From the IMG/VR virus record IMGVR_UViG_3300032046_000006, positions 32,001-96,000 of that record: a stretch of DNA of 64,000 nucleotides; one strand, written 5' to 3'. Shown here piece after piece: positions 4,209 to 60,416 of this stretch. The notes under the pieces are model-generated. The model searched no databases. It saw only the letters and a program-made list of their open reading frames with translations, and had not been told where the DNA came from. Positions within the stretch are counted from its first letter, which is position 1; each line of letters opens with the position of its first letter. This stretch comes from a virus. Position numbers and translations under genes: made by a program.

Positions 4209-4648
4209 TAAGAAGACTTAATTTAAAAGATAAAACTTCACTTTATGACTTTATTAACAATTGTCCGGATAAGTTTGAAGATTTTTATCTAACTATTGGG
4301 AAGGAACGGAAATTTTTAAAAGGGAACTTCAAATTAATTGAAAAAATTTTGAAATATCAAACTTTTTATGCTGTTGATTTAGGTGAGATAAAAGCAATTT
4401 TATTGATACATAGAGAAAAAAATTTTAGACCTTACATTCGCATCTTGACACAAAACAAAAAATATATTTATGACTTGATGAGATTTGTTGGTTGGAATTT
4501 TTCAGAAGAATTATATATGAAAGTTAAAAAATTGAATATAATTAATGCAGTGGCTCAACGATTTGGATGGGAATTTTTGGGAAGTCGGGGATTGGAAATA
4601 TTATTGAAAAAGAATAAAAGTAAACCAAGGGAGATAAGACGTGAATAA
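4205..4648 (+). CDS. Hypothetical protein (weakly GNAT-like)
   Basis: 147-aa ORF coupled to neighbours; IRRLNLKD start and AQRFGW end recall GNAT, but acetyl-CoA motif is absent. Confidence 0.35.
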   Translation: MIRRLNLKDKTSLYDFINNCPDKFEDFYLTIGKERKFLKGNFKLIEKILKYQTFYAVDLGEIKAILLIHREKNFRPYIRILTQNKKYIYDLMRFVGWNFSEELYMKVKKLNIINAVAQRFGWEFLGSRGLEILLKKNKSKPREIRRE

Positions 4649-10661: not shown

Positions 10662-13600
10662 TGGATACTAAAACTTTTATAGGAATAATAAATCTTGAAC
10701 TTAATAAACAGGGAGTAGACGAAGGAATAAAAAAGACTGGTGCCACTATGGAAGAAGTGGCAGGAAAACCAATTACTTTTCCTTGGGTTGCCAAGGCATA
10801 TGAATCTCTAAAAAAGACCAGCGATGCAACTAAAGATTTTTCCTCTCAATTAGAAGGATTTAATGTAGTTAGTGCAAAATCTAATGAAATTTTTAAAGAG
10901 GGAGAATCGGTAGGTAGAAAAACGGCAGTAACTTTTAGAAACTTTGCTGGAGATATGGAAGTTGTTACAAGAGAATTTGATAAAGATGGAAAACTTGTTT
11001 CTCAAAGTATGCAATCTATGGGACAAGGTGCGGCACTTGGTGCAGTAGGTGTTAAAGATTTTTCTGGGGAATTGGAGGGATTTAGTAAAATTTCTACTAA
11101 AATAAATACTATTTTCGAACAAGGCAATGAAGTGGGAATGAAATCGGTAGAAACTTATAAAAATCAAGAAGGTGCCCTTAAAGCAGTTACTATGGGTTTT
11201 GATAAGCAGGGCAACATAGTTTCTCAATCATTGCAAGAAACCCAAAAACAGGCAGAAGCAGCAACTTATGCGGTCAAAGATTTTTCTACTCAACTTCAAG
11301 GATTTACTCTTATTGGAAGTAAAACTACGAGTATATTTAAAGCAAATAATGAAGAAACTAAACAAAGTATAGATATTTATAGAAATCAGTCAGGTGCAAT
11401 AAGACAAGTTACGACAGATGCAGATAAAAATGGAAAAGTAACTGGACAATCTCTAAGAGATATAACCAAGGGTGCAACACAAAGTGCAACTATGATGGAA
11501 CAACTCGGAATGGCTATGAAAAGAGCTTTAATTGTTGCTCCTGTATGGATGATTATGCGTGGTGCCATACAAGCACTTATGGTTCCTGTTAAAGAATTAA
11601 TTAAGGCATTTTTTGAATTAGAAACAGGTTTAGCAAAGGTAATGACAGTATCTCGAATTTCTGCTTCAGAACAAAATAAATTTTATGGAGAATTAACAGA
11701 GGTAGCATGGAAGTATTATAAAACCTCATCTGCTAGTATGAAAGAAATTACAGAAGCAATGTATCAAATAGGAACAGCAGGAAGAAGTACTGCGGAAATT
11801 TTACAGGGGTTTACTCATGTTTTAAATTTAAGTATCGCTACATTTGGTAATGTAACAGATGCGGGTAGAGTTCTTACAGGAATTTTAAATGTTTATGGGG
11901 GTTCGTTGGGCAACTTAATTACTGCCGAAGAAAAGATGAGATATATTTCTGATTTATTAGTTGATACATGGTCAAGACATCAAGTAGAATTAAATGAAAT
12001 ATCAACTGCAATAGGATATGTTGGCTCTGTATCGGAAGCTCTAGATATAGATTTAAAAACTTTAGTGGGAACTATAGGTTTTTTAAATGATGGTCTGCTC
12101 AGAGGTTCAAAAGCTGGAACTTCGTTATTAAATACGTTCGTTCAATTAGCAAAAAGTCCAGAAAAATTAAGAGATTTAGGAGTTGTTTTTGACCCAAGAA
12201 AACCCTTAGATTTAGTAGATGTAATGCAACAATTACATAATAGATTTATAGAAACTGGGAAATCGGTGGAATCAACGGGTGATATGTATGCCATATTTGG
12301 AAACAGGGGGGCTAAAGCAGTTGAAAGAATTATTCAAAATTGGGATAAATGGATAGAGTCTATTCAAAGAGGGGACGAAGAATTTCAAAAATTTGCAGAA
12401 AGAACAAAAAAGACCGCAGAAGAAACCCTGCCAAAAGCATTTGCCAAATTTTTAAAATTGGGGATGATGCCGAGTTTTCCTTCAAAAGGGAAAAATCCTC
12501 TTACTGAATGGCTCAATGAGCAATCCGATGCAATGATTAAAGCTAGTGAAAATTTAGAATTATATTATAAATTAGTTGCTAAAGGAATAAAATTACCAGA
12601 ATTACCTACGAAATGGGTAGGGGGAGATATTTTCGGAAGATTAGTTGGATTTGTTCCCGAAGATTTGGCAAAAAAATTAGAACCGATTAAAGAATTTTTA
12701 GATTTAATAGGAGTCGCAGAAATAGAAAAAGAATTAGGCAGACCAATAGGGGAAGTCGCAAGCAATTTAATGTCAGCAGGGCAAAGTGCAAAAGTATTAT
12801 TAGACCAAGCTGTAGCTAATAATGAAACGTGGGAACAAATGGCAGATAATGAAGGTAAAATAGTTGCTGATTTATTAAATATGACAGACGAAGAATTAAA
12901 ACAAAACAGTTATTTGAAAGAAATTTATGAATATAGATTAAAAAATAAAGTTGAGGTAGAAAAAGAAGGAGTAGGTCAGAGAGGACTGAGTTCTGAATTA
13001 AAGAGAAAATTAGAGTTGCAGGAACAGGAAGTTACTTATTCTCTAGCAAAAATGGCTGGAATGAAAGATGAAGAAATTACTTATGCAAAAATAGCAAATA
13101 AAGTTAATTATTTAAATAAATTAGCGTCGGAAGCAAATAAATCAAGAAAAGCAGAAGGAAAAGAGATTTATCAAATGGTAAATCTTTCAGATGTATTAAG
13201 TGGAAATTGGAAAAAAATTCAAGAATCTGGGTCGACTCTTTTGGATGAAGACAAAGACATAGTTGAATTGGATAAAATGCGGAATGATTTGCAAATTCAA
13301 ATTTCTCAACATGTACAGCAACAAGTATCTCTGGTTTCATCAGTATATCGATTTATGGGTTTGCAAGAATCTAGTATTATAAAACAAGAAATGATTTTTA
13401 AAGCAATAATGAATGGAGAAAAATATATAGTCAATAGTGAAGAAGATAGATTAAGATTAGCACAAGCATTAAGTGCAGAAATGACCGAACAGGAAAGGAA
13501 ATCCTCAAGTTTGGTTGAATTATATAAAATAGCAAAACAATATGGCATGGGAGTGGCTCAGGAAGTTTCTAATTTCTTGGGAGGAATATTAAAATTTAGT

Positions 13601-27618: not shown

Positions 27619-28233
27619 TTATTCCTTTTTTAATATCATTAAAAATTCTTCTTCGGTATATGTGGTAATTCCATCTGCATACTCTCTCAATCCAATCCAA
27701 GGTATTTTCCGTATAGATAATCGAGTATATCGTTCAGTAAGTTTCATTATATCTTCTTCTAACAGACAATATGGATGGGCAGAATCTCTAACTTTCTTTT
27801 CTTTAAAAAACTCTACAGCTAAAATAAAATGTCCTTGTGGTTTTAATACTCTATAAATTTCATTATTTGTTTTTTCAATATCATCAACATGGTCAAGAGC
27901 ATTAGAGCAAAAAACTACATCAAAAAAATTATCCTTAAATGGGATGTTTTCTCCTTTTGCTTTTAAAATGTTTAATTCAGGAGGATAATCGTATAATGTT
28001 TTATAAGTTTCTGCTAATGGGTCTATCCCAAATCTTTCTCCTGGAAGAAAGTGCAAAATAGTAGAAATTCCACATCCCATATCCAAAATAATGGATCGAT
28101 TATTAAATTTACAATGGTCAAGAATAGTATCAAAATATCTATATTTTTGCCAATATTCTAATACTTTTTCTTTATTATTTTTAAATATTTTTGCCCAGCG
28201 TTTTTGAAATAATAATTCGTCTTCGGCTTTCAT
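27619..28233 (-). CDS. Class I SAM-dependent methyltransferase
   Basis: ILDMGCG, IPFKDNFFDVV, RVLKPQG; ATG 28233 overlaps upstream stop. Confidence 0.9.
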   Translation of the reverse strand: MKAEDELLFQKRWAKIFKNNKEKVLEYWQKYRYFDTILDHCKFNNRSIILDMGCGISTILHFLPGERFGIDPLAETYKTLYDYPPELNILKAKGENIPFKDNFFDVVFCSNALDHVDDIEKTNNEIYRVLKPQGHFILAVEFFKEKKVRDSAHPYCLLEEDIMKLTERYTRLSIRKIPWIGLREYADGITTYTEEEFLMILKKE

Positions 28234-43301: not shown

Positions 43302-43769
43302 TTATTCCTCACCTCCTCTATAGAAAGAAGAAATAACCGCTCCGATTTGTTTCATTTGGTCAACAGTAAATCTTCTTCCTCTCGTCATATTACATATATG
43401 ACATGCAATGATTACATTATTTATGTGATGTCCATCTTGATGATTTATTCTATCAAATCCTAAATTTATATTATTGCCACAATAATAACATTTACCGGTT
43501 TTTAATAATTGACAAAATTCTCTTACATTTAATATTATTGACTTATAATTATGTTTTCTATCAAATGCTTTATATTTATAATATTTTCTTCTTCTTAAAA
43601 TATCGTCTACACCATAACCAGTTCCTAATCGCATTGGTGCTACCAAACCTAACATCATACCTTTTTCTTTATGCTTTCTTGAACAAAATACATTTTTACT
43701 TTTTATATGAGATTTATCTCTATAAAAAATTTTATCACAAATAGCACAGTTACATTTAATTTTAGGCAT
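43302..43769 (-). CDS. HNH endonuclease
   Basis: CYYCG..GFDRIN..DGH..NNV..CHICN. Confidence 0.85.
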   Translation of the reverse strand: MPKIKCNCAICDKIFYRDKSHIKSKNVFCSRKHKEKGMMLGLVAPMRLGTGYGVDDILRRRKYYKYKAFDRKHNYKSIILNVREFCQLLKTGKCYYCGNNINLGFDRINHQDGHHINNVIIACHICNMTRGRRFTVDQMKQIGAVISSFYRGGEE

Positions 43770-43812: not shown

Positions 43813-46800
43813 TTATTCCTCATAATAGGCTTTAAGTTCTTTTTTTAATAAATCATCATTCTCATAAACACTTTGTTCATTATTTTTCGGACATTCTTCT
43901 GGATTTTTAGATAAGCATTTACCTTCCTTTTCTTGCCCACATTTATTAAAATCACAAAGATTATCTTCTTCTATAAAATCTTTTTCAGTAAAAGTAGGTT
44001 GAGATTGAATTATTGATTCTTGCTCTTTAACTATTTTTAAAGCGATTTGAGCTTTAGTTTTTCGTTCTTTTTTAGGTTTAGTTATTATGCCAATTTTTTC
44101 TTTATTCCATTTAAGAGCATCAAAGATTTTTTCGGCAATGTCTAAAATATTCCTTTTAGTCATCATGTCATAATCTATTTCTATTATTTGGTTTTGGGTT
44201 TCTTCATCATAAGCGAGGACATTTTTTTCTATCATTGTATGGGATTCTTTTAATTCCTTTTTCCCAGTTTCTTTATTTTTACGCATTTGCTTGGCATGTC
44301 TTTCTGATGTGCCAAGTGATTTAACATAACAATAATAAAAAGTCTCTCCAGAATTTTTAGCAAATCCAAACAATTCTTTAGAATAATCCAAAGCTCTCAA
44401 AAAAATAGGAGGACTTTTATAATCTTGTGCATTATTTATTTTAGAAGGAAATCCGATTTCAATTACAGGAACTTTTATAATCGCTTCTTTTTGTGAAGCG
44501 ATAAATTCTATAATCGCTTCTTGAGATTCATTGTTAAGAACCTTTTCTATTAATTCTTCTTGAAACTTTTTCATAAAAATAGAACTATTTCGTCTTTTTA
44601 CTTCCACTCCTTTAATTTCTTTTTTGATTCCTGCTTTTGATTTTAGGTAACCAACATAATGACATAAAGCTACTACTAATAATCTATCAAAGATACCCTC
44701 ACAATCAAAAGAAATATCTAGGTTTGGCTTATTGTATTGTTTTGCCCAATCTTTTACTAAATCATTTAATAAATTAGTAGGGTCTTCTTTGGCTAATACA
44801 AATAAACTATCAGTATCTACATAAGTTACTTTCATTTGTTGTTCCTGTAATTTATTTTCTACAAAATGAAGTAAATCTCTTACTATACTGGTAATAGCAG
44901 AGGCTATCCGAACATCATATAAACGAAACGCTTTTAAAGCAGTTACCCCGAAGAGACTATTTGTGAGTGCCTTGGTCGCATCATATTTTATTTGTAAATC
45001 TTTTGCGTCTTCACTTTCTGGATTTAAAGATTTTAATTGTTTTTTTAATATGTCTTTTTTGGCGATTAATTTTCTTGCTATAATAGGTAATAAAGTATTT
45101 TGATTTTGTTTAACATAAATAGAATATTTTATTTCATTAGTTTCTCGGTCAGTTATGTCTATTTTTTGTTCATTTTTATTTTCAGTAAGATTGGAAATAT
45201 CTAAACAAAAATTAATAATAGTTTGGGGATAAGCACTACTCAAATCAAGTTTATAGACCTGCTCAAATCGGCCAAGTTCGGCTCTTCTATATGCTCCCTC
45301 AAATTCCTTACCTTCTTCTATTATAATATCTTCCGCATATTTTTTTGAAGGAAGAATTATACCGAGTTTTTTTGCTTCAGTTAAAAGCATTACATCAAGA
45401 ACTTTTGAATTTCCACTTAATACTATTCGTTCATTATGTCTTATCAAAAAATTATGATATTCGTTTTCTATACACCAAATTTTGCCTTCATATCGAATTT
45501 CTTTTTTAGCGTGATAACGAAATAATTTAAATGGATTTTTTACAATGTTTCCTTCATAATATATTCCTTCATTTTTAATTCTTTTATGTGTTCTAACATT
45601 CCATCCAGCTAAAATACATAATAATTGAAATTGATTGATTAATTCTTTGCTTTTAGAATAATAACAACCACTATTTCTGGATTGCCAATGCCCATCTCCT
45701 TTCATCATAGTTTCGATTAATAGTCTTTTTTGTTGAATAGATAATTCAAAAACAAAATTGGGTAATTCTTTCTTATTTCTCAACAATTGTTTATATAAAG
45801 AAGTATAGACTGCTTTAATACGAAAATTAATACAGTTATTATTTTTATGTATATATTTAGAATATCCTAAATTTTCTTGATTTAATAATTCTTCTATTTC
45901 ATTTGCTTCTTTGCCTTTATTTTGATAAATAGAAATAGCTTTACTACATTTCTCAAAATGCCCTTCAGAAATAATCCATCCAATAAGTTTAATTTGATTA
46001 TCTGTTAATTGATTGAATTTTCCTTCATAGCCCTCCGAACCGACAAAAAAATATCTATCATCCCTGTCGGGTATAGAATCTATTGTATTTTCTTCTAATT
46101 TTAGTGTATTTCGTTCAGGTCTGTTATAAGTCATTAAAAATTTATGATTAGGGGTAACGCAAAAATTAATTCGTTCATTTTGATAATTAATCATTTTACC
46201 TTTATAATTATAAATAAATAGATTTTTAATATTTGATACTTCTAATTGAAATGTTTTTGGATTCATCGAATAAACTTTATCTGATTTTTTTATTTCATTA
46301 TATTTTTTCCAACCATTTTTAGTAAGAATTTCTGTTTGTTCATCAAGACAATTCCATGTAATGTCTTCCCAAACACATTTTCCCATTCTACGAATTTCAT
46401 CATAATAAGTTATAATATTTTTTTCTTTTTCAATTCCTACCATATCTTCGATGTCTTCTTTATTTTTTTCCTTAATATCATCAGTAATTTGACTAAAATC
46501 TACTTTCTTTTTCGGAGGTTTCTTTAAATATTTTTGGGCAATATAATCTAAGGAATAAGATACTTCTTTATTATAAATTTTTTTAAACAAATCTAGATAA
46601 TCTAATATACTAATTCCTGATGGATAGGGAATATCCATTTCTTTTATTCCATAACGATATTTATTTATTGGGGAAATCAATTCGGCTAAATCTAAATTCC
46701 ATAATTTTTTTATACGAGCATATAAATAAGGATAATCGAATAAAATAAAATTCCAACCTAATAAAATATCTGGTTGTTCTTCTTTTATATACTTTACAAA

Positions 46801-47301
46801 TTCTTTTAATAATTCATCTTCGGCACATTCTGTTTTATCGATTCCTTCTCTTTTACCAAATTCATAATAATCTTTAATCCAAAAAGTTTTAATTTCTTTA
46901 GATAAAGAATTATAAATACTAATACTTGTTATTGGCTGATTAGGATAAAGATAATCGGGTACTCCTGTTTTTGTTTGAATTTCAATATCAATAAAAATAT
47001 ATTTGATAGGGGATTTAATAATTTCTCCTACCTTATCAATTAAATAACGTTTCGGGTATAAAATGTCTGCCTCATAAGAATTTTCATCTCTTTTGCGAGC
47101 AACTTCTGAAGGTAATTTACAGAATACTTTATTTACTTTTTTCCCATTAATAGTTCTAAAGATTCCTGTAGAAGATTCTTTGAAAAAATAAGGCATGAAA
47201 TTCTTATCCCTAAACTGAGATAATTGACCATCGGGTTGACGATTGAATAGGATTATCTCTCTGCCCGAATTACTGATATTTTGGATTGGCAAACTTAACA
47301 C
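43813..47301 (-). CDS. polB: Family B DNA polymerase containing an intein
   Basis: DIE exo I, GWN...FD exo II, DLSSAYP, K...NSLFG, YVDTDS, KGVE. Confidence 0.93.
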   Translation of the reverse strand: MLSLPIQNISNSGREIILFNRQPDGQLSQFRDKNFMPYFFKESSTGIFRTINGKKVNKVFCKLPSEVARKRDENSYEADILYPKRYLIDKVGEIIKSPIKYIFIDIEIQTKTGVPDYLYPNQPITSISIYNSLSKEIKTFWIKDYYEFGKREGIDKTECAEDELLKEFVKYIKEEQPDILLGWNFILFDYPYLYARIKKLWNLDLAELISPINKYRYGIKEMDIPYPSGISILDYLDLFKKIYNKEVSYSLDYIAQKYLKKPPKKKVDFSQITDDIKEKNKEDIEDMVGIEKEKNIITYYDEIRRMGKCVWEDITWNCLDEQTEILTKNGWKKYNEIKKSDKVYSMNPKTFQLEVSNIKNLFIYNYKGKMINYQNERINFCVTPNHKFLMTYNRPERNTLKLEENTIDSIPDRDDRYFFVGSEGYEGKFNQLTDNQIKLIGWIISEGHFEKCSKAISIYQNKGKEANEIEELLNQENLGYSKYIHKNNNCINFRIKAVYTSLYKQLLRNKKELPNFVFELSIQQKRLLIETMMKGDGHWQSRNSGCYYSKSKELINQFQLLCILAGWNVRTHKRIKNEGIYYEGNIVKNPFKLFRYHAKKEIRYEGKIWCIENEYHNFLIRHNERIVLSGNSKVLDVMLLTEAKKLGIILPSKKYAEDIIIEEGKEFEGAYRRAELGRFEQVYKLDLSSAYPQTIINFCLDISNLTENKNEQKIDITDRETNEIKYSIYVKQNQNTLLPIIARKLIAKKDILKKQLKSLNPESEDAKDLQIKYDATKALTNSLFGVTALKAFRLYDVRIASAITSIVRDLLHFVENKLQEQQMKVTYVDTDSLFVLAKEDPTNLLNDLVKDWAKQYNKPNLDISFDCEGIFDRLLVVALCHYVGYLKSKAGIKKEIKGVEVKRRNSSIFMKKFQEELIEKVLNNESQEAIIEFIASQKEAIIKVPVIEIGFPSKINNAQDYKSPPIFLRALDYSKELFGFAKNSGETFYYCYVKSLGTSERHAKQMRKNKETGKKELKESHTMIEKNVLAYDEETQNQIIEIDYDMMTKRNILDIAEKIFDALKWNKEKIGIITKPKKERKTKAQIALKIVKEQESIIQSQPTFTEKDFIEEDNLCDFNKCGQEKEGKCLSKNPEECPKNNEQSVYENDDLLKKELKAYYEE
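45409..46350 (-). mobile_element. Intein (314 aa) with LAGLIDADG endonuclease
   Basis: N|CLDEQTEILT..GW, VTPNH, LIGWIISEG, MMKGDG, IWCI, SGN|S. Confidence 0.92.
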
Positions 47302-48009
47302 AAATAAACTCCTTTGCTAATTTAATCATTTCTTTATATGTAAATAAATTAGATTTAATATAATTACATCTACAACAAGCCAATGCAATATTTTTGATAG
47401 TATATGGTTTATTATTATTTTTTCTATCTAAAGTTAGTTTATTAGAAATCATGGCTAACTGAGAATATTTTTTAAATTTTAATTGATATTCTTTTATTCC
47501 ACAATAAACACAAATTTTTTCTTGTTTATTAAACCAATATATGAATTGCTGTTTTGTAATTAAAACTTTTATATTTCTTCTTTTTGCTCTATAAGTAAAA
47601 GACCACCATTTTAATAACGCCTGATGTGAATTTTTATATTTATTTAATATTCTTTTACTTTTTAATGGATGTTTTTTTGCCCATTCTAAATTTCTTTTAT
47701 TGCATTCTTTTTTATGAGTTTGATAATAATGAGGAGCTTTCCTTGCCCATCTTTTATCAGATTCTTTTTCCCGCCTTGTCCCTTAGGCGGTGACGGTGGC
47801 GGACTTGATGGTTTTGCATTAACTCCACCCTTCTTCACCGTTCCCTCTTTTATCCTCGTTCTACTGGATCCTTTTGACATTCTCAACCTCCTTCCGCATT
47901 TACAAATTCGCCGAATTTGTTTAAAATATTCTTTTATTTCTTTTCGATGTTTTTTGTGATATATTCTATCGTATTTTTGTTTATCCTTTTTTCCTTTTAT
48001 TGAACTCAT
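47270..48009 (-). pseudogene. HNH endonuclease gene split by a 188-bp insertion
   Basis: Removing 47730-47917 yields a continuous 183-aa ORF ...KEYFKHYYQTHKKE...CVYCG...LTLDRKNN...CCRCN. Confidence 0.8.
47730..47917 (-). mobile_element. 188-bp GC-rich insert carrying an SD and the start of a Pro/Gly/Lys-rich mini-ORF (ATG 47880)
   Basis: About 47% GC by hand count, CA at both junctions, palindrome at one end, GGAGG SD. Confidence 0.65.
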
Positions 48010-48908
48010 ACTTTAAAAGTTAAAATAAGAACTCTATCATTTTCACTAATACCAAACTTTGCAAATAAATCTTCAATTTCATAATTATTAACCATTCCGG
48101 TATCAACATGCAACAATCCATTAGGAATAGTTTTAAAATCACAAATATCAATATCTATTAAATTTGCTTCTTTTATTTTTTCATTATTCAACAAAACATC
48201 AAAATTACTTCCCATTAAATCATTATAATAATGGTATTTTTCTTCTGTATATTTTCTAATAGTTGTAAAAATATTATGATTTAATTTATTATTCCAATTA
48301 TGGGAAAATTTTATTTTATTCATTTTATTCTTTGCCAATTGTATATATTTTTCCTCTTTTAAGCGAAATTGTTCCCATTTTATACTCCTTCTTTAATTGT
48401 ATTCTTCCTATCCAAAAATTAATTTCTTCCCATATACAAACAAATATTCCAACAAATATTATTACTGGCAAAAAAATCAATACTAATAAATTAAAAGTAT
48501 TATTTTTCATTTTCAAATATCCACCAGTTTAAATTTTCTATTTTCATTTTTTAGTTAGACCATTGATAAAATTCATTATATTATCTTTAATCCACATATC
48601 TAACGCATCCAATTCTCTAATTCTATTACATTTATAGCACATTTCAAATAAATGATTTTCATCAAAAATTATTGTTGGTTCTTCACAATTACAATAAATC
48701 ATTATTTATCCTTTCCTTCAAAATGAAAAGTATCGTCATCATTTGCTCTAATGGTTTTGCCTATCCAATTAGATAATGCTTGCCAAAATCTTTCATCGGG
48801 ATGAGCAATACAATAATGAATAAAATCATTTAAAACTGCTATATTTTTAGATGTTTTCATTCTGTTGATTCCTCCTCTATTAATTTCATTACATCTGGAT
48901 AAGGACAT
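48006..48908 (-). other. Small hypothetical ORFs (48006-48338 possibly ASCH/PUA-like)
   Basis: IKFS...FTTIR motif; co-oriented. Confidence 0.45.
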
Positions 48909-49008
48909 TCTGGAACTGGAGGTTCGGTTATCTTTAATATATCAATTCTTAAAAAATGGCATAAGATTTTAGAAAACAAGAATTTTATATTTAAAATAAA
49001 TAAGTTCA

Positions 49009-49566
49009 TTATTCCTCCATAGATTTTCCAAAATCTTTAATATATCTAAAATAAACATACCAATAATCTCTATTAGCATTTGTTTTAGCATGACATTTTT
49101 TACAAAGACAGATTAAATTTTCTTCTTTACAATTCATTTTATCATAATCTATATGATGAGTAGAGTTGCCTGAGTTATTACATAATTGGCAAATATAATT
49201 ATATTTTTCTCTAATATGAATTTTTATATATCTCCAATTAGGAGCATAGGGGAAATAAGCAATTCCTCCTTGCCAATTATTATTTTTATTTCCTTTTCGA
49301 GAAGGAAATTTAAAATATTTACTATTTTGTTTTAACCATTTAATATAACACATTCTACATTTTTTTGCATATATATTTTTTAATCTTCTACCGCATTTAC
49401 AATAATATTTAATTCCTTTATAATTAGGATTATTTTTTCCATTATAATTTCTTCTATTTTTCATTCTTTTTATAATACTTATCTCATTAGCGTGTTTTTG
49501 GCATCGTTTGCTAATAAAACTTATTTCTTCCCCACAATCAATGCAAAAAGATTTATTTTTATACAT
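49009..49566 (-). CDS. HNH homing endonuclease, paralog of 3618-4208
   Basis: NWQGGI..PY..W, CQLC, HHIDYDK.N...NLICLCKKCH. Confidence 0.9.
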   Translation of the reverse strand: MYKNKSFCIDCGEEISFISKRCQKHANEISIIKRMKNRRNYNGKNNPNYKGIKYYCKCGRRLKNIYAKKCRMCYIKWLKQNSKYFKFPSRKGNKNNNWQGGIAYFPYAPNWRYIKIHIREKYNYICQLCNNSGNSTHHIDYDKMNCKEENLICLCKKCHAKTNANRDYWYVYFRYIKDFGKSMEE

Positions 49567-49567
49567 A

Positions 49568-50647
49568 TTATTCCTCAGATTCAAACTCTATCCAATCTTT
49601 AAATGTTTTTTTAATTTGCTCTTCGGTAGGTTTTTCAAAAGCATACTCATAATAAAAAGGCAAAGTAACTACAGAACTTTCGGGAGCAGTTCCACTAAGT
49701 TTTGTTTTTTCAATTTTTATATTTAAAGGAAATCCAATTATTATTTCTTTTGACTTATCGTTTATTTTAAAACGATATCTAGGGGAATCTGCTTTTGCCC
49801 CTCTATAGGTTTTAAGTGTTATTGCCGACCAATGTTGAAGAGCATGACCAGAACTAAGAGCATCGAGTTTAATAAAACTACCCAAATCTGTTCTTGCTTG
49901 CCCTATAAGTAATACTGCCACTTTGCCGGAAGCTACACCAGAAGCAGTCATTCTAAAGAATTGAGATAACTTACGAGCAAGTAAAGCCATCGTATCATCT
50001 GCTACAGACCTTTCCTTGCCTGTTTTAGTTTCTTTTTCGCCTTGCGGACTTAAAGATTGAATAGAATCAAGTACAATTAGCCCCACACTTTTTTCATTAC
50101 ATAATTTAATAATCATATCAAATGTTTCTTCGGCATTTTTAGATTTATTAGCTATTAATAAAGTATCTAAATTTACTCCCATTTTAGTCGACCAAACTTT
50201 ATTAAATGATTGCTCTAAATCAATATAGAGGGACTGTATTCCTTTTTTCTGTGCTTGAGCAATAACCAAATAAGCAAGAGTAGATTTTACGGAAGATTTA
50301 TTCCCCCACAATACCGTAAACATTCCCTCTGTAATCCCCCCACCTATTAAGTCATCTATTTGCTTTATTCCAAAAGGAATTTTGCCTTTTTCTGGTTCTT
50401 CGGAGGCAAAATGAATAACCTCATGTCCAAACTGTTTAGTCAAATTATTTACCGTTCTCTTTAGATTTGGATTTATATTTTCTTCTTTTTTATTATCTTC
50501 TTTACGTTCTTCTAATAATTTCTTATCTAAAGGTTCTAATTTTCCTTCTTTGGCTTCTTGTAATCCTTTTTCTACTAATTTTTTAGATTCTTTTGATAAG
50601 GGAATTTGTTTCTTATTTTTTGACCCTTTAGGTCTTCCTCTTGGCAT
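49568..50647 (-). CDS. RecA/UvsX-like recombinase with N-terminal AT-hook
   Basis: IDDLIGGG, YIDLE, MGVN, LIVLDSI, LARKLSQFFR; PRGRP at start. Confidence 0.88.
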   Translation of the reverse strand: MPRGRPKGSKNKKQIPLSKESKKLVEKGLQEAKEGKLEPLDKKLLEERKEDNKKEENINPNLKRTVNNLTKQFGHEVIHFASEEPEKGKIPFGIKQIDDLIGGGITEGMFTVLWGNKSSVKSTLAYLVIAQAQKKGIQSLYIDLEQSFNKVWSTKMGVNLDTLLIANKSKNAEETFDMIIKLCNEKSVGLIVLDSIQSLSPQGEKETKTGKERSVADDTMALLARKLSQFFRMTASGVASGKVAVLLIGQARTDLGSFIKLDALSSGHALQHWSAITLKTYRGAKADSPRYRFKINDKSKEIIIGFPLNIKIEKTKLSGTAPESSVVTLPFYYEYAFEKPTEEQIKKTFKDWIEFESEE

Positions 50648-58280: not shown

Positions 58281-58715
58281 TTATTCTCCTTTATTCCAAG
58301 GAATATGTCCTTTTTTAAATCTGGTTTTAAATCCATTTTTAGGAGCTGTTCTGTTCAATCCATATAAATAAGCATGTTTATTGTTTTCTCTTTTTGTTAC
58401 CCATTCTAAATTTGTAAATAAATTATTTAATTTATTACCATCTCTGTGATTAACTTCTGGTTTGTTTCTTAAATTTAACACAAAATATTGGGCTACTAAT
58501 CTATGAATAGAAAAATCTTTATGTTGTTTATTATGATATAATCTAATTCTTCTATATTCCCAACTCAAAAAAGGTTTTAATATTCTTTCTCTTAATTTTT
58601 GTGGTTTACTTCCTTTATGTCCGCAATACAATAATCTTGAAATTCTCTTAACTCTTCCATGAGAACTAATTTTATAATTATCATATTCTTTAATAGTTTT
58701 CCAAAATTCACGCAT
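58281..58715 (-). CDS. NUMOD4-HNH endonuclease
   Basis: WK.I..Y..Y.IS..GRV; IHRLVA..F; VNHRDGNK.NN...NLEW. Confidence 0.93.
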   Translation of the reverse strand: MREFWKTIKEYDNYKISSHGRVKRISRLLYCGHKGSKPQKLRERILKPFLSWEYRRIRLYHNKQHKDFSIHRLVAQYFVLNLRNKPEVNHRDGNKLNNLFTNLEWVTKRENNKHAYLYGLNRTAPKNGFKTRFKKGHIPWNKGE

Positions 58716-58725
58716 TTTATTCTCC

Positions 58726-59805
58726 TTAACGAAATTCTGTTGCATTTTTTCTTAATAAATATTCTTCACTAAGATTTTTTAATATCTTTCTTCCAAAAAT
58801 TCTACCTTTATATTCATACTTTTCATTTTCTATTTTAGGTTTTATTACACAACCTTCTCTTATTTGTTCTGAACATCGTAAGGACTTTCCATCGGTGCAT
58901 AATTTTAAGGTATCATAAGTATATTGCCCCTCAAATAAAACAGGAACATAAGGCAAATTATATTGAATACAAAAAGAAACAACATCACACCAATCCAAAT
59001 ATTTATTTTTATATTTTATATCGAAAATAATTAAATCTCTTCCTTTTATTCCATAAGTCAAATCTTGAATTCCTTCGCCATAAATTTCCCCATAAATAAT
59101 GTAATCTGTAGGAATGATTTTATCTAAATTATATTTTTTTACCATTTCATACCAAATGTCTTCTTTGTAAAATCCCTTATGAAGAGAATATTTTTTCTTT
59201 TGGACAGTATGCGATCCGTATACGAATTCATACTTTTTCCCAAACAAAAACATAATTATATTCCATAAATTATTTTTGGGTCTTGGAAGATTGCCTACCC
59301 GAAAATTGCTTCCATGAATTTTCTCGCTAATTATTACTTCTTCGCCTTCCAGAAACATATCCGAAAAGTGTTTGAAGTTTTCTATATCAGTATACTTGTC
59401 AAATAGAGGATTTAATTTCTTTTTTGTTACCTGTCCTTGCGACTGATTGATTGCTGGCTCCGGAACTTCGTATTTGGTTATACCTAACATTTCTGCTACA
59501 TTCATTCCTTCGTTAAGTTTATAATCTTCTGGAACATCTAAAATTAACCCTTGTGAAATTTCTCCTCGCAACTTTATGGTTCCTACTCTCCCATTTTTCT
59601 TTAAAAATTCTAATTTATATTTTTCAATAAGATTGGTAGGAATAATACTATCAGGAGGGCAAAAAATAACTAAATCCCCTTCCTTATATTGGTCTAATCC
59701 TACAATACATCTCCATCCCTTGATAGTAATAATTGAAAGTTTGTCTGCATTGGGATGTTTTTCTATCTTATTTACTTTACAAATTTCAACAATAAGTTGG
59801 CTCAC
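58726..59805 (-). CDS. RNA ligase, DRB0094/Rnl5 family
   Basis: N-terminal HPNADKL OB domain; EKIHG; YGE; IFDI; REG.V. Confidence 0.9.
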   Translation of the reverse strand: MSQLIVEICKVNKIEKHPNADKLSIITIKGWRCIVGLDQYKEGDLVIFCPPDSIIPTNLIEKYKLEFLKKNGRVGTIKLRGEISQGLILDVPEDYKLNEGMNVAEMLGITKYEVPEPAINQSQGQVTKKKLNPLFDKYTDIENFKHFSDMFLEGEEVIISEKIHGSNFRVGNLPRPKNNLWNIIMFLFGKKYEFVYGSHTVQKKKYSLHKGFYKEDIWYEMVKKYNLDKIIPTDYIIYGEIYGEGIQDLTYGIKGRDLIIFDIKYKNKYLDWCDVVSFCIQYNLPYVPVLFEGQYTYDTLKLCTDGKSLRCSEQIREGCVIKPKIENEKYEYKGRIFGRKILKNLSEEYLLRKNATEFR

Positions 59806-60416
59806 TTCTTCTCCTCTTTAGGTTCTTTTCTTTTTAATTTATATTTTTCGTCAATAAATCTTAGGTATTCAGGTAGTGTATTAAAAACTTCTCCTTCACT
59901 TACAAGAATTATTTGTAATAAACTTTTCGGCAAATCTTTTTTTGGCATATCGGTAATGAGATAAATGGGAATTCCATGTTCAACTGAGATACCACATTCG
60001 GCAAACGATCCGCATGGGCGATCGCCTTTATTATAAATAAAGGTCAACCAATCTGACATTAATACATAAGCAATATCACCAGGAATATGCACTAATTCGT
60101 TTTTTCCATCGATGTATCTCTTCCCTTTCCAAATCTCTTTTGCACGTTCTTTGAATAAATCCCAATTTCCTGAAGAAACCCATCCTATCATTTTTTCTTT
60201 TATTTCCTCAGTTTTCATTCCTGTTTTTGATGCTTCTAATGAAACTGGGTCAATTGGATAAACATTCCTTAATAATAACTCTTTTTTTGGTTCTGTTCTT
60301 TTTCCAGTACCATCATCTTTTTCAGCACAAATTTCCATTGAGCCGATAAGATAGCTTACATACTTAAATTGTTCTTCTAATTGGTCTGGAGTAGGATATG
60401 ATTTATTTTCTTCCAT
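59802..60416 (-). CDS. Nucleoside 2-deoxyribosyltransferase-like protein
   Basis: YLIGSME, D...V..SD, GS..E. Confidence 0.55.
   Translation of the reverse strand: MEENKSYPTPDQLEEQFKYVSYLIGSMEICAEKDDGTGKRTEPKKELLLRNVYPIDPVSLEASKTGMKTEEIKEKMIGWVSSGNWDLFKERAKEIWKGKRYIDGKNELVHIPGDIAYVLMSDWLTFIYNKGDRPCGSFAECGISVEHGIPIYLITDMPKKDLPKSLLQIILVSEGEVFNTLPEYLRFIDEKYKLKRKEPKEEKK

Follow-up and report, generated by a model that had tools for sequence, protein, structure and literature searches.

A short GC-rich block of foreign composition splits a PacI-like HNH nuclease gene next to polB in an AT-rich phage genome

Bases 32001-96000 of the 105,887-bp IMG/VR virus record IMGVR_UViG_3300032046_000006 (the window, 64,000 nucleotides, in which positions are counted below) belong to a tailed, AT-rich phage with a genome of about 106 kb. 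Directly beside the gene for a family-B DNA polymerase (polB), the window carries an HNH-type nuclease gene whose coding sequence falls into two reading frames around a short GC-rich stretch. This raises the question of what the stretch is and what it has done to the gene. The original prediction, made from the sequence alone, took 188 bp at 47730-47917 to be either a non-autonomous mobile mini-cassette or captured foreign DNA that silences the nuclease, and proposed that its removal at the DNA or RNA level would act as a switch. The answer favoured here, with little better than even confidence, is a recent one-off capture of foreign DNA that frameshifted a decaying homing-endonuclease gene, and most likely the split gene was broken not long ago and is no switch.

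The gene and its parts are as follows (GC3, GC content at third codon positions).
47270..48009, minus strand: the whole split PacI-like HNH nuclease gene, free-standing, of homing type, abutting polB
47899..48009, minus strand: native N-terminal 37 codons in frame 0 (MSSIKGKKDKQKYDRIYHKKHRKEIKEYFKQIRRICK), a Lys/Tyr-rich repeat module with a GC3 of 0.135
47270..47782, minus strand: the -1 frame with an intact PacI-like catalytic domain (profile match of 157 bits, E 9e-50)
47733..47769, minus strand: native repeat unit (KESDKRWARKAP), a diverged duplicate of 47667-47712 (KECNKRNLEWAKKHP)

The open reading frame (ORF) in frame 0 starts at 48009 and ends at a TAG stop at 47686..47688, giving a chimeric product of 107 aa. 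Relative to it, the second frame lies at -1 and is open over 170 codons from 47782 to a stop at 47270, so that the two frames overlap over 47782-47686. The catalytic half is without an ATG, GTG or TTG before 47452, as had been noticed earlier. Deletion of 47917..47730 does yield the single 183-aa ORF on which the original prediction rested, but so do 3953 of 14300 deletion pairs restore one ORF. Restoration is generic because the two frames overlap, and the junctions first chosen thus have no special standing.

By sequence, the gene is a member of the PacI-like HNH nuclease family. A profile built from 15 family members matches residues 27-137 of PacI (PDB 3ldy_A) at E 2.5e-23 and 86.2 bits, and the catalytic frame matches phrog_1035 at E 4e-11, whereas its Pfam HNH score of 16.8 stays below the cut-off of 21.4. 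In a library of 1.84 billion proteins, 1968 relatives of this frame were found at E<=0.001; the best homologue (P0004, E 1.1e-34) aligns from query residue 5, the codon at 47770. The 157 bits of the catalytic domain come from a profile of 123 homologues, and the -1 frame keeps all of the invariant columns (C91, Y93, C94, R120, N131, C136, C139 and N140). The N-terminal 37 codons resemble the family only weakly, both against profile positions 36-66 (3.9 bits, E 0.006) and against the N-terminus of an HNH protein of a relative, L005 (12/32 identical, E 0.009). As a side observation, a paralogue of the family lies at 43302-43769, just downstream of polB and adjoined by a methyltransferase gene; it encodes 155 aa, matches phrog_1035 at E 2e-08 and is 21% identical to the catalytic domain of the split gene.

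What lies at this position varies among relatives. Its 3' end is overlapped by the start of polB:
43813..47301, minus strand: family-B DNA polymerase gene polB with an intein-like insert (phrog_262, E 6.9e-79)
The nuclease gene is absent from two relatives (L003 and L004) whose polB N-termini are 80-83% identical and in which a 122-aa gene abuts polB instead, and at exactly the same spot L005 (polB N-terminus 75%) carries a different HNH gene of 189 aa. Because the gene is absent in the first two and replaced in the third at a fixed spot, it is classed as a mobile, homing-type insertion, of a kind that would be predicted to cleave the gene-less allele and spread through its repair. Counting the split gene, the replication module holds at least four genes of HNH type, the others being at 43302-43769, 49009-49584 and 58281-58745. 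None of 17 candidate close relatives of the split nuclease in IMG/VR was confirmed, and a block-less allele of this exact gene is therefore unavailable.

The GC-rich stretch carries several features of its own.
about 47765..47897, minus strand: foreign GC-rich block of 133 nt with a Shine-Dalgarno sequence, an ATG and 38 codons (MSKGSSRTRIKEGTVKKGGVNAKPSSPPPSPPKGQGGK), without a stop codon of its own
47902..47920, either strand: perfect 9-bp palindrome with a 1-nt spacer, ACAAATTCG-G-CGAATTTGT, ending 4 nt before the block
47878..47891, minus strand: Shine-Dalgarno sequence GGAGG (47891-47887), 6-nt spacer and ATG (47880-47878), in frame with the ATG at 48009
47771..47790, minus strand: hairpin CCGCCT-N8-AGGCGG, 6 nt from the 3' end of the block
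47764..47770, minus strand: G_AAA_AAG in phase with frame 0 at the junction of block and gene, a putative slip site read from the sequence

The palindrome, the hairpin, and the GGAGG with its in-frame ATG had all been pointed out before and are present as described; for the palindrome, 0.03 matches are expected by chance in a scan allowing up to 3 mismatches. The proposed limits did not hold. The real block extends over about 47765-47897/8 and measures about 131-134 nt, since the 35 nt assigned to its 3' part (47764-47730) are native nuclease coding sequence. The 3' edge is put at about 47765-47770 by three independent lines of evidence: homologues align from 47770, the stretch 47733-47769 duplicates nuclease sequence further on (direct repeats D2 at 85% and D4 at 78% link it with 47667-47712), and the part matched by contigs of two groundwater runs reaches to 47765. 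The 3' junction falls within a run of AAAAA found both in the native repeat and in what the groundwater contig matches, which amounts to a 5-nt microhomology. The CA noted at both of the earlier junctions is there, but it is only a 2-nt homology and no more than chance would give. The 5' edge is less certain, and the palindrome, which holds the rare codons CGG and CGA, could have come in with the block, although it lies beyond the part that the groundwater contigs match. Removal of 47898..47765 (134 nt) leaves a 201-aa ORF.

That a foreign GC-rich block interrupts the HNH gene was borne out. The rise in GC is real for the 188 bp as first drawn (46.8% against 0.21 in both flanks) and steeper for the block proper (50.4%). 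The highest 80-nt GC peak of the window lies at the insert, with 0.5625 against a mean of 0.295 and a standard deviation of 0.062. In frame 0, the GC3 of the block is 0.44; the native parts on either side have 0.135 and 0.133, and 78 phage ORFs together 0.20. Only 0.076% of 15768 windows of 45 codons in these ORFs reach a GC3 of at least 0.44, so the block is foreign at synonymous sites and not merely through its Gly/Pro codons. Among 150 homologues of the family, none contains anything that corresponds to the block.

A near-identical copy exists elsewhere. Contigs from two groundwater runs of another study (X2 and X3) match 47772-47897 and 47765-47890 with one mismatch each, at 47848. Each contig is 151 nt long, of which 126 nt match and about 25 nt do not fit the window. 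If the contigs lie in the usual orientation, they leave the window at 47897 and 47765, apparently into unlike flanks. A joint in X2 from 47587 to 47974, with a 22-nt side and 16 letters between, was treated as coming from an unrelated organism. The likely source run (X1) yielded a Logan contig of 2454 nt that spans 46800-48600, carries the block and has 0 differences. A minor X1 contig at 47715-47775 (depth 5.5 against 18) has a 1-nt deletion at 47750 and a G inserted after 47755, two indels that compensate each other; its probable source is a related nuclease gene of another phage in the sample.

Of copies at other sites, which the original prediction had advised looking for, the near-identical one in these two groundwater runs, with flanks that are apparently different, is the only candidate, and the collections searched gave none. 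The block occurs once in the 105,887-bp genome. DNA-pattern searches gave 0 copies in IMG/VR and 0 in JGI metagenome contigs, no match was obtained in the records of three relatives (G001-G003), and blastn returned only matches of 21-34 nt (E 0.2-0.8) from a phage collection and zero from a plasmid collection. With the back-translated peptide, 0 of 594 candidate stretches in JGI contigs and 0 of 600 in GTDB genomes held up; one IMG/VR match (L002), 13 low-complexity residues at the start of an unrelated 286-aa protein, was judged to be chance. The block was not found among 5.8 billion protein clusters, a search for relatives of its peptide among proteins of 35-112 aa and of 71-2000 aa returned only its own ORF, and the best score in the ESM Atlas (0.75) was below the usable range. 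Without relatives, the peptide offers no basis for the HMM that the original prediction had suggested. No look-alikes were seen in other scanned windows, no RNA runs were listed as holding the sequence, and literature listings and the openings of abstracts contained nothing pertinent.

A simple course of events would account for these observations. About 131-134 nt of foreign DNA with a GC content of about 50% would recently have been inserted into the variable N-terminal linker of the nuclease gene. Since the length of the insertion is of the form 3n+2, the 37 native codons and the block would be read in frame 0 up to the stop at 47686, and the catalytic domain would be stranded in the -1 frame without a start codon. 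With its Shine-Dalgarno sequence, ATG and 38 codons, the block resembles the 5' end of a gene and may come from a more GC-rich genome. A single capture is probable, by illegitimate or microhomology-mediated recombination or as filler in break repair, and the gene would then be a pseudogene of recent origin, in the phase of decay that is usual for homing-endonuclease genes.

Several points weigh against this account. The catalytic domain shows zero decay, with 170 codons open in a genome of 30% GC, and the intact frame could for this reason still be expressed; an in-phase G_AAA_AAG lies exactly at the junction. An intact domain and no more than one mismatch between the two copies of the block are what a recent event would leave, and they suit continued expression equally well. 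That the N-terminal and catalytic halves were once one gene is likely but not proven, because the N-terminal family match is weak (3.9 bits). A mobile element, too, would be expected to leave another copy in what appear to be different flanks. The exit points at 47897 and 47765 assume the usual minus-strand orientation, the opposite orientation makes X2 and X3 disagree, and the 25-nt flanks of the groundwater copy could not be read. X1 is perhaps the source sample itself, so that its contig may rest on the same reads. The comparison covered contigs, and minor variants such as other lengths of the A-run or block-less forms are invisible at this level.

Among the alternatives, the one that survives best is nevertheless unlikely: the block would be a genuine mobile mini-element, non-autonomous and transposing time and again among phages of sediment and groundwater or among their hosts, with one insertion here. 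The near-identical copy in two groundwater runs with apparently different flanks, the sharp compositional boundaries, the hairpin close to the 3' end and the perfect palindrome close to the 5' end speak for it. Yet the block has no terminal inverted repeats of the kind that mark a miniature inverted-repeat transposable element, as no inverted pair joins about 47897 with about 47765 in a repeat scan with seed 6. Nor was a target-site duplication seen: no direct repeat flanks the block in the same scan, and there is only the AAAAA run at the 3' junction. The copy test gave 1 copy in the genome itself, 1 near-identical copy in X2/X3 with apparently unlike flanks, and 0 in IMG/VR, JGI contigs, GTDB genomes, plasmids, the records of the three relatives and the other scanned windows. 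The palindrome falls outside the stretch shared with the groundwater copy, and the fold z-scores of the block, between -1.75 and -2.6, are unremarkable. A mobile element is therefore possible, yet it is without every structural hallmark testable here, and this part of the original prediction stays unproven.

Somewhat more doubtful is the view that the gene is functional. A -1 shift at G_AAA_AAG (47770-47764) by ribosomes coming from the start at 48009 or at 47880, or a variation in length of the A-run, would produce the nuclease, and the block would serve as a throttle on a potentially harmful enzyme. By frame arithmetic, a -1 slip at this site or one additional A would fuse both frames into 246 codons, that is, a 246-aa nuclease with a 45-residue Gly/Pro-rich linker. 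In favour of this view, the catalytic frame lies exactly at -1 to the N-terminal frame and overlaps it, the in-phase heptamer sits where the homologue alignment begins, an AAGGGA resembling a Shine-Dalgarno sequence lies 8 nt upstream of it, the catalytic domain is fully intact, and the N-terminal region, where the insertion site lies, varies in length across the family. Sites of the A_AAG type are known from dnaX to allow -1 slippage in bacteria. However, the heptamer is imperfect compared with X_XXY_YYZ, as the P-site would have to re-pair AAA with GAA, and the perfect A_AAA_AAG at 47713-47707 is too far downstream to include native residues. As to a stimulatory structure downstream, only a 4-bp hairpin is predicted (z -1.8 for 47730-47800). 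A-rich slippery strings are common (AAAAAAG occurs 85 times against 76 expected), and no relatives with the block were found that might show conservation. Five A's are too few for transcriptional slippage, which argues against variation through the A-run.

A combination of the two, more doubtful still, would make the block an undescribed tiny cassette circulating among sediment and groundwater phages or their hosts. Such a cassette would bring its own ribosome-binding site, a start codon, a stop-less frame and a slippery Lys-Lys end, and would thereby make the downstream part of a gene dependent on a -1 frameshift; in this case it would throttle a self-harming homing nuclease instead of killing it.

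An assembly chimera, or a 1-nt homopolymer error that creates the frameshift, is very improbable. The record was assembled from a metagenome at a moderate depth of 12.6, and the frameshift lies at an A-run, which would suit such an error. However, a chimera would need to rejoin the same gene on both sides, and the foreign block remains even without a frameshift. The original prediction had itself named a chimeric assembly as a possible refutation; it did not come about, as a second assembly, the Logan contig of X1, is identical across both junctions, even if it may share reads with the record.

Removal of the block at the RNA or DNA level as a switch (intron-like splicing, translational bypass or reversible excision) is hardly credible: it has on its side that some deletions restore an ORF, whereas the sole X1 contig spanning the locus carries the block and X1 showed no contig joint across it, Rfam gave 0 matches at gathering score and at E up to 10 only AniS (E 9.7), size and ends are unlike those of a group I intron (where the exon ends in U and the insert in G, which is not the case here), frame 0 is open through the block so that no take-off-site stop would provoke bypass, and there is neither a second copy nor a template/variable repeat pair, as a diversity-generating retroelement would need. 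Searches for tRNA and tmRNA found none, and the insert is also unlike an intein, since its length is not divisible by 3 and the 44-45 residues that it encodes match nothing in Pfam.

The surroundings of the split gene showed further variation. The polB product is 1162 aa long here and 1127 aa in L004, compared with 819 aa in L003 and 810 aa in L005. The roughly 340 extra residues, present only in some relatives, begin with 'CLDEQTE...' after '...CVWEDITWN' and look like an intein with a homing-endonuclease domain. The region at 48006-49009, between the recombinase/HNH genes and polB, is hypervariable compared with L003, L004 and L005. Upstream of polB, the relatives have a conserved gene of 118-142 aa (MKILILEDNP...) where 4-5 unrelated small ORFs are found here, and a 40-aa remnant at 48969-49091 is similar to what lies directly upstream of the conserved gene in L003. 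In a sediment run of a third study (X4), contigs are 80-98% identical over 46881-47259 and 48115-48261. Because these contigs match the start of polB and an upstream 110-aa ORF, relatives of this phage are placed, on sequence grounds, in other sediments too; the cover of X4 is low, with no contig over 47715-48080, and the run is uninformative on the block.

The phage itself has a GC content of 29.5-30% in the window. Among its gene products are a tape-measure protein, the family-B DNA polymerase, a UvsX-like recombinase and a primase, as well as an RNA ligase, several DNA methyltransferases and a peptide deformylase. The latter gave only 31-32% matches and thereby no lead to the host. Many ORFs are preceded by GGAGG and then ATG, so the phage initiates translation by Shine-Dalgarno sequences. 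A scan gave 13 promoter-like sites against 9.6 expected, and no terminators were found. The scarcity of GATC noted in the original prediction was confirmed, with 7 sites in the window against about 200 expected from shuffles, one of them in the block at 47867. The others are at 28094, 35551, 59213, 60007, 60020 and 63112, two of them 13 nt apart in a GC-richer patch at 60007-60023. This near-absence points to strong restriction avoidance.

Outside the window, a 97-nt 'direct terminal repeat' of the genome sits in arrays of a tandem repeat with a 24-nt period (GCCTCATCCCAAGCCTTGTATGCC-like), which cover genome positions 1-190 and 105700-105887, with a third array at 97090-97240 (about 97.1 kb). 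The terminal repeat and the genome completeness inferred from it may thus be driven by this repeat. An apparently non-coding island of 54% GC lies at genome positions 12522-12621, and a tandem array with a 12-nt period (CTAACTTGCGAC-like) at 4420-4620.

If the gene was broken by a single capture, the event is of an ordinary kind, a homing-endonuclease gene disabled by an insertion. The unusual detail is the small and well-delimited foreign block with a nearly identical copy in another habitat. The case would then offer a well-resolved view of a homing-endonuclease gene just after inactivation, and it would suggest that foreign gene pieces of 133 nt move between phage gene pools of different habitats. 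If a recurrent cassette or a frameshift throttle were true instead, it would amount to a new way for phages to tame selfish nucleases and to a new class of mobile DNA, very small in size, in environmental genomes that are rich in AT. Should the PacI-like nuclease be active, it might be a rare-cutting enzyme whose target, in relatives without the gene, would be close to the start of polB.

Several known systems resemble parts of this locus. The -1 frameshift of Escherichia coli dnaX uses A_AAA_AAG with an upstream element resembling a Shine-Dalgarno sequence and a downstream stem-loop. The split gene likewise has an in-phase Lys-Lys slippery string with AAGGGA 8 nt upstream, but the first base is G instead of A and a strong downstream stem-loop is missing. 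Rickettsia palindromic elements and the GC clusters of yeast mitochondria are short GC-rich mobile repeats inside genes of AT-rich genomes. They share with the block that a short GC-rich stretch lies in an AT-rich coding region and is open in one frame, but they are multi-copy and palindromic, whereas the block is single-copy per genome, not palindromic overall, frame-shifting and similar to a gene start. In phage T4, the mobA/gene 60 cassette consists of an HNH gene and a 50-nt translational bypass, and there too an HNH homing gene is accompanied by a short piece of non-native sequence interrupting the reading frame of a replication-module gene. Here, in contrast, the nuclease itself is interrupted, by 133 nt, and there is no take-off stop and no matched take-off and landing codons.

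In terms of protein, the closest known system is PacI (PDB 3LDY/3M7K) with the PacI-like HNH (beta-beta-alpha-metal) nucleases, together with phrog_1035 'endonuclease VII'; conservation extends to both Cys pairs and to the D-R...N...C-x2-C-N core. The present gene, in contrast, stands alone in a phage genome, has an N-terminal module of Lys/Tyr-rich repeats and is interrupted by an insert that shifts the frame. Homing endonucleases reportedly pass through a life cycle of invasion, fixation, degeneration and loss, as Goddard and Burt are said to have described in 1999. The locus agrees with such a cycle in that close relatives either have or lack the gene at one fixed site next to an essential gene and in that a lesion, presumably disabling, is seen while the domain is still intact. 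What sets it apart is that the lesion would be a captured foreign gene fragment with a ribosome-binding site and not a point mutation or deletion.

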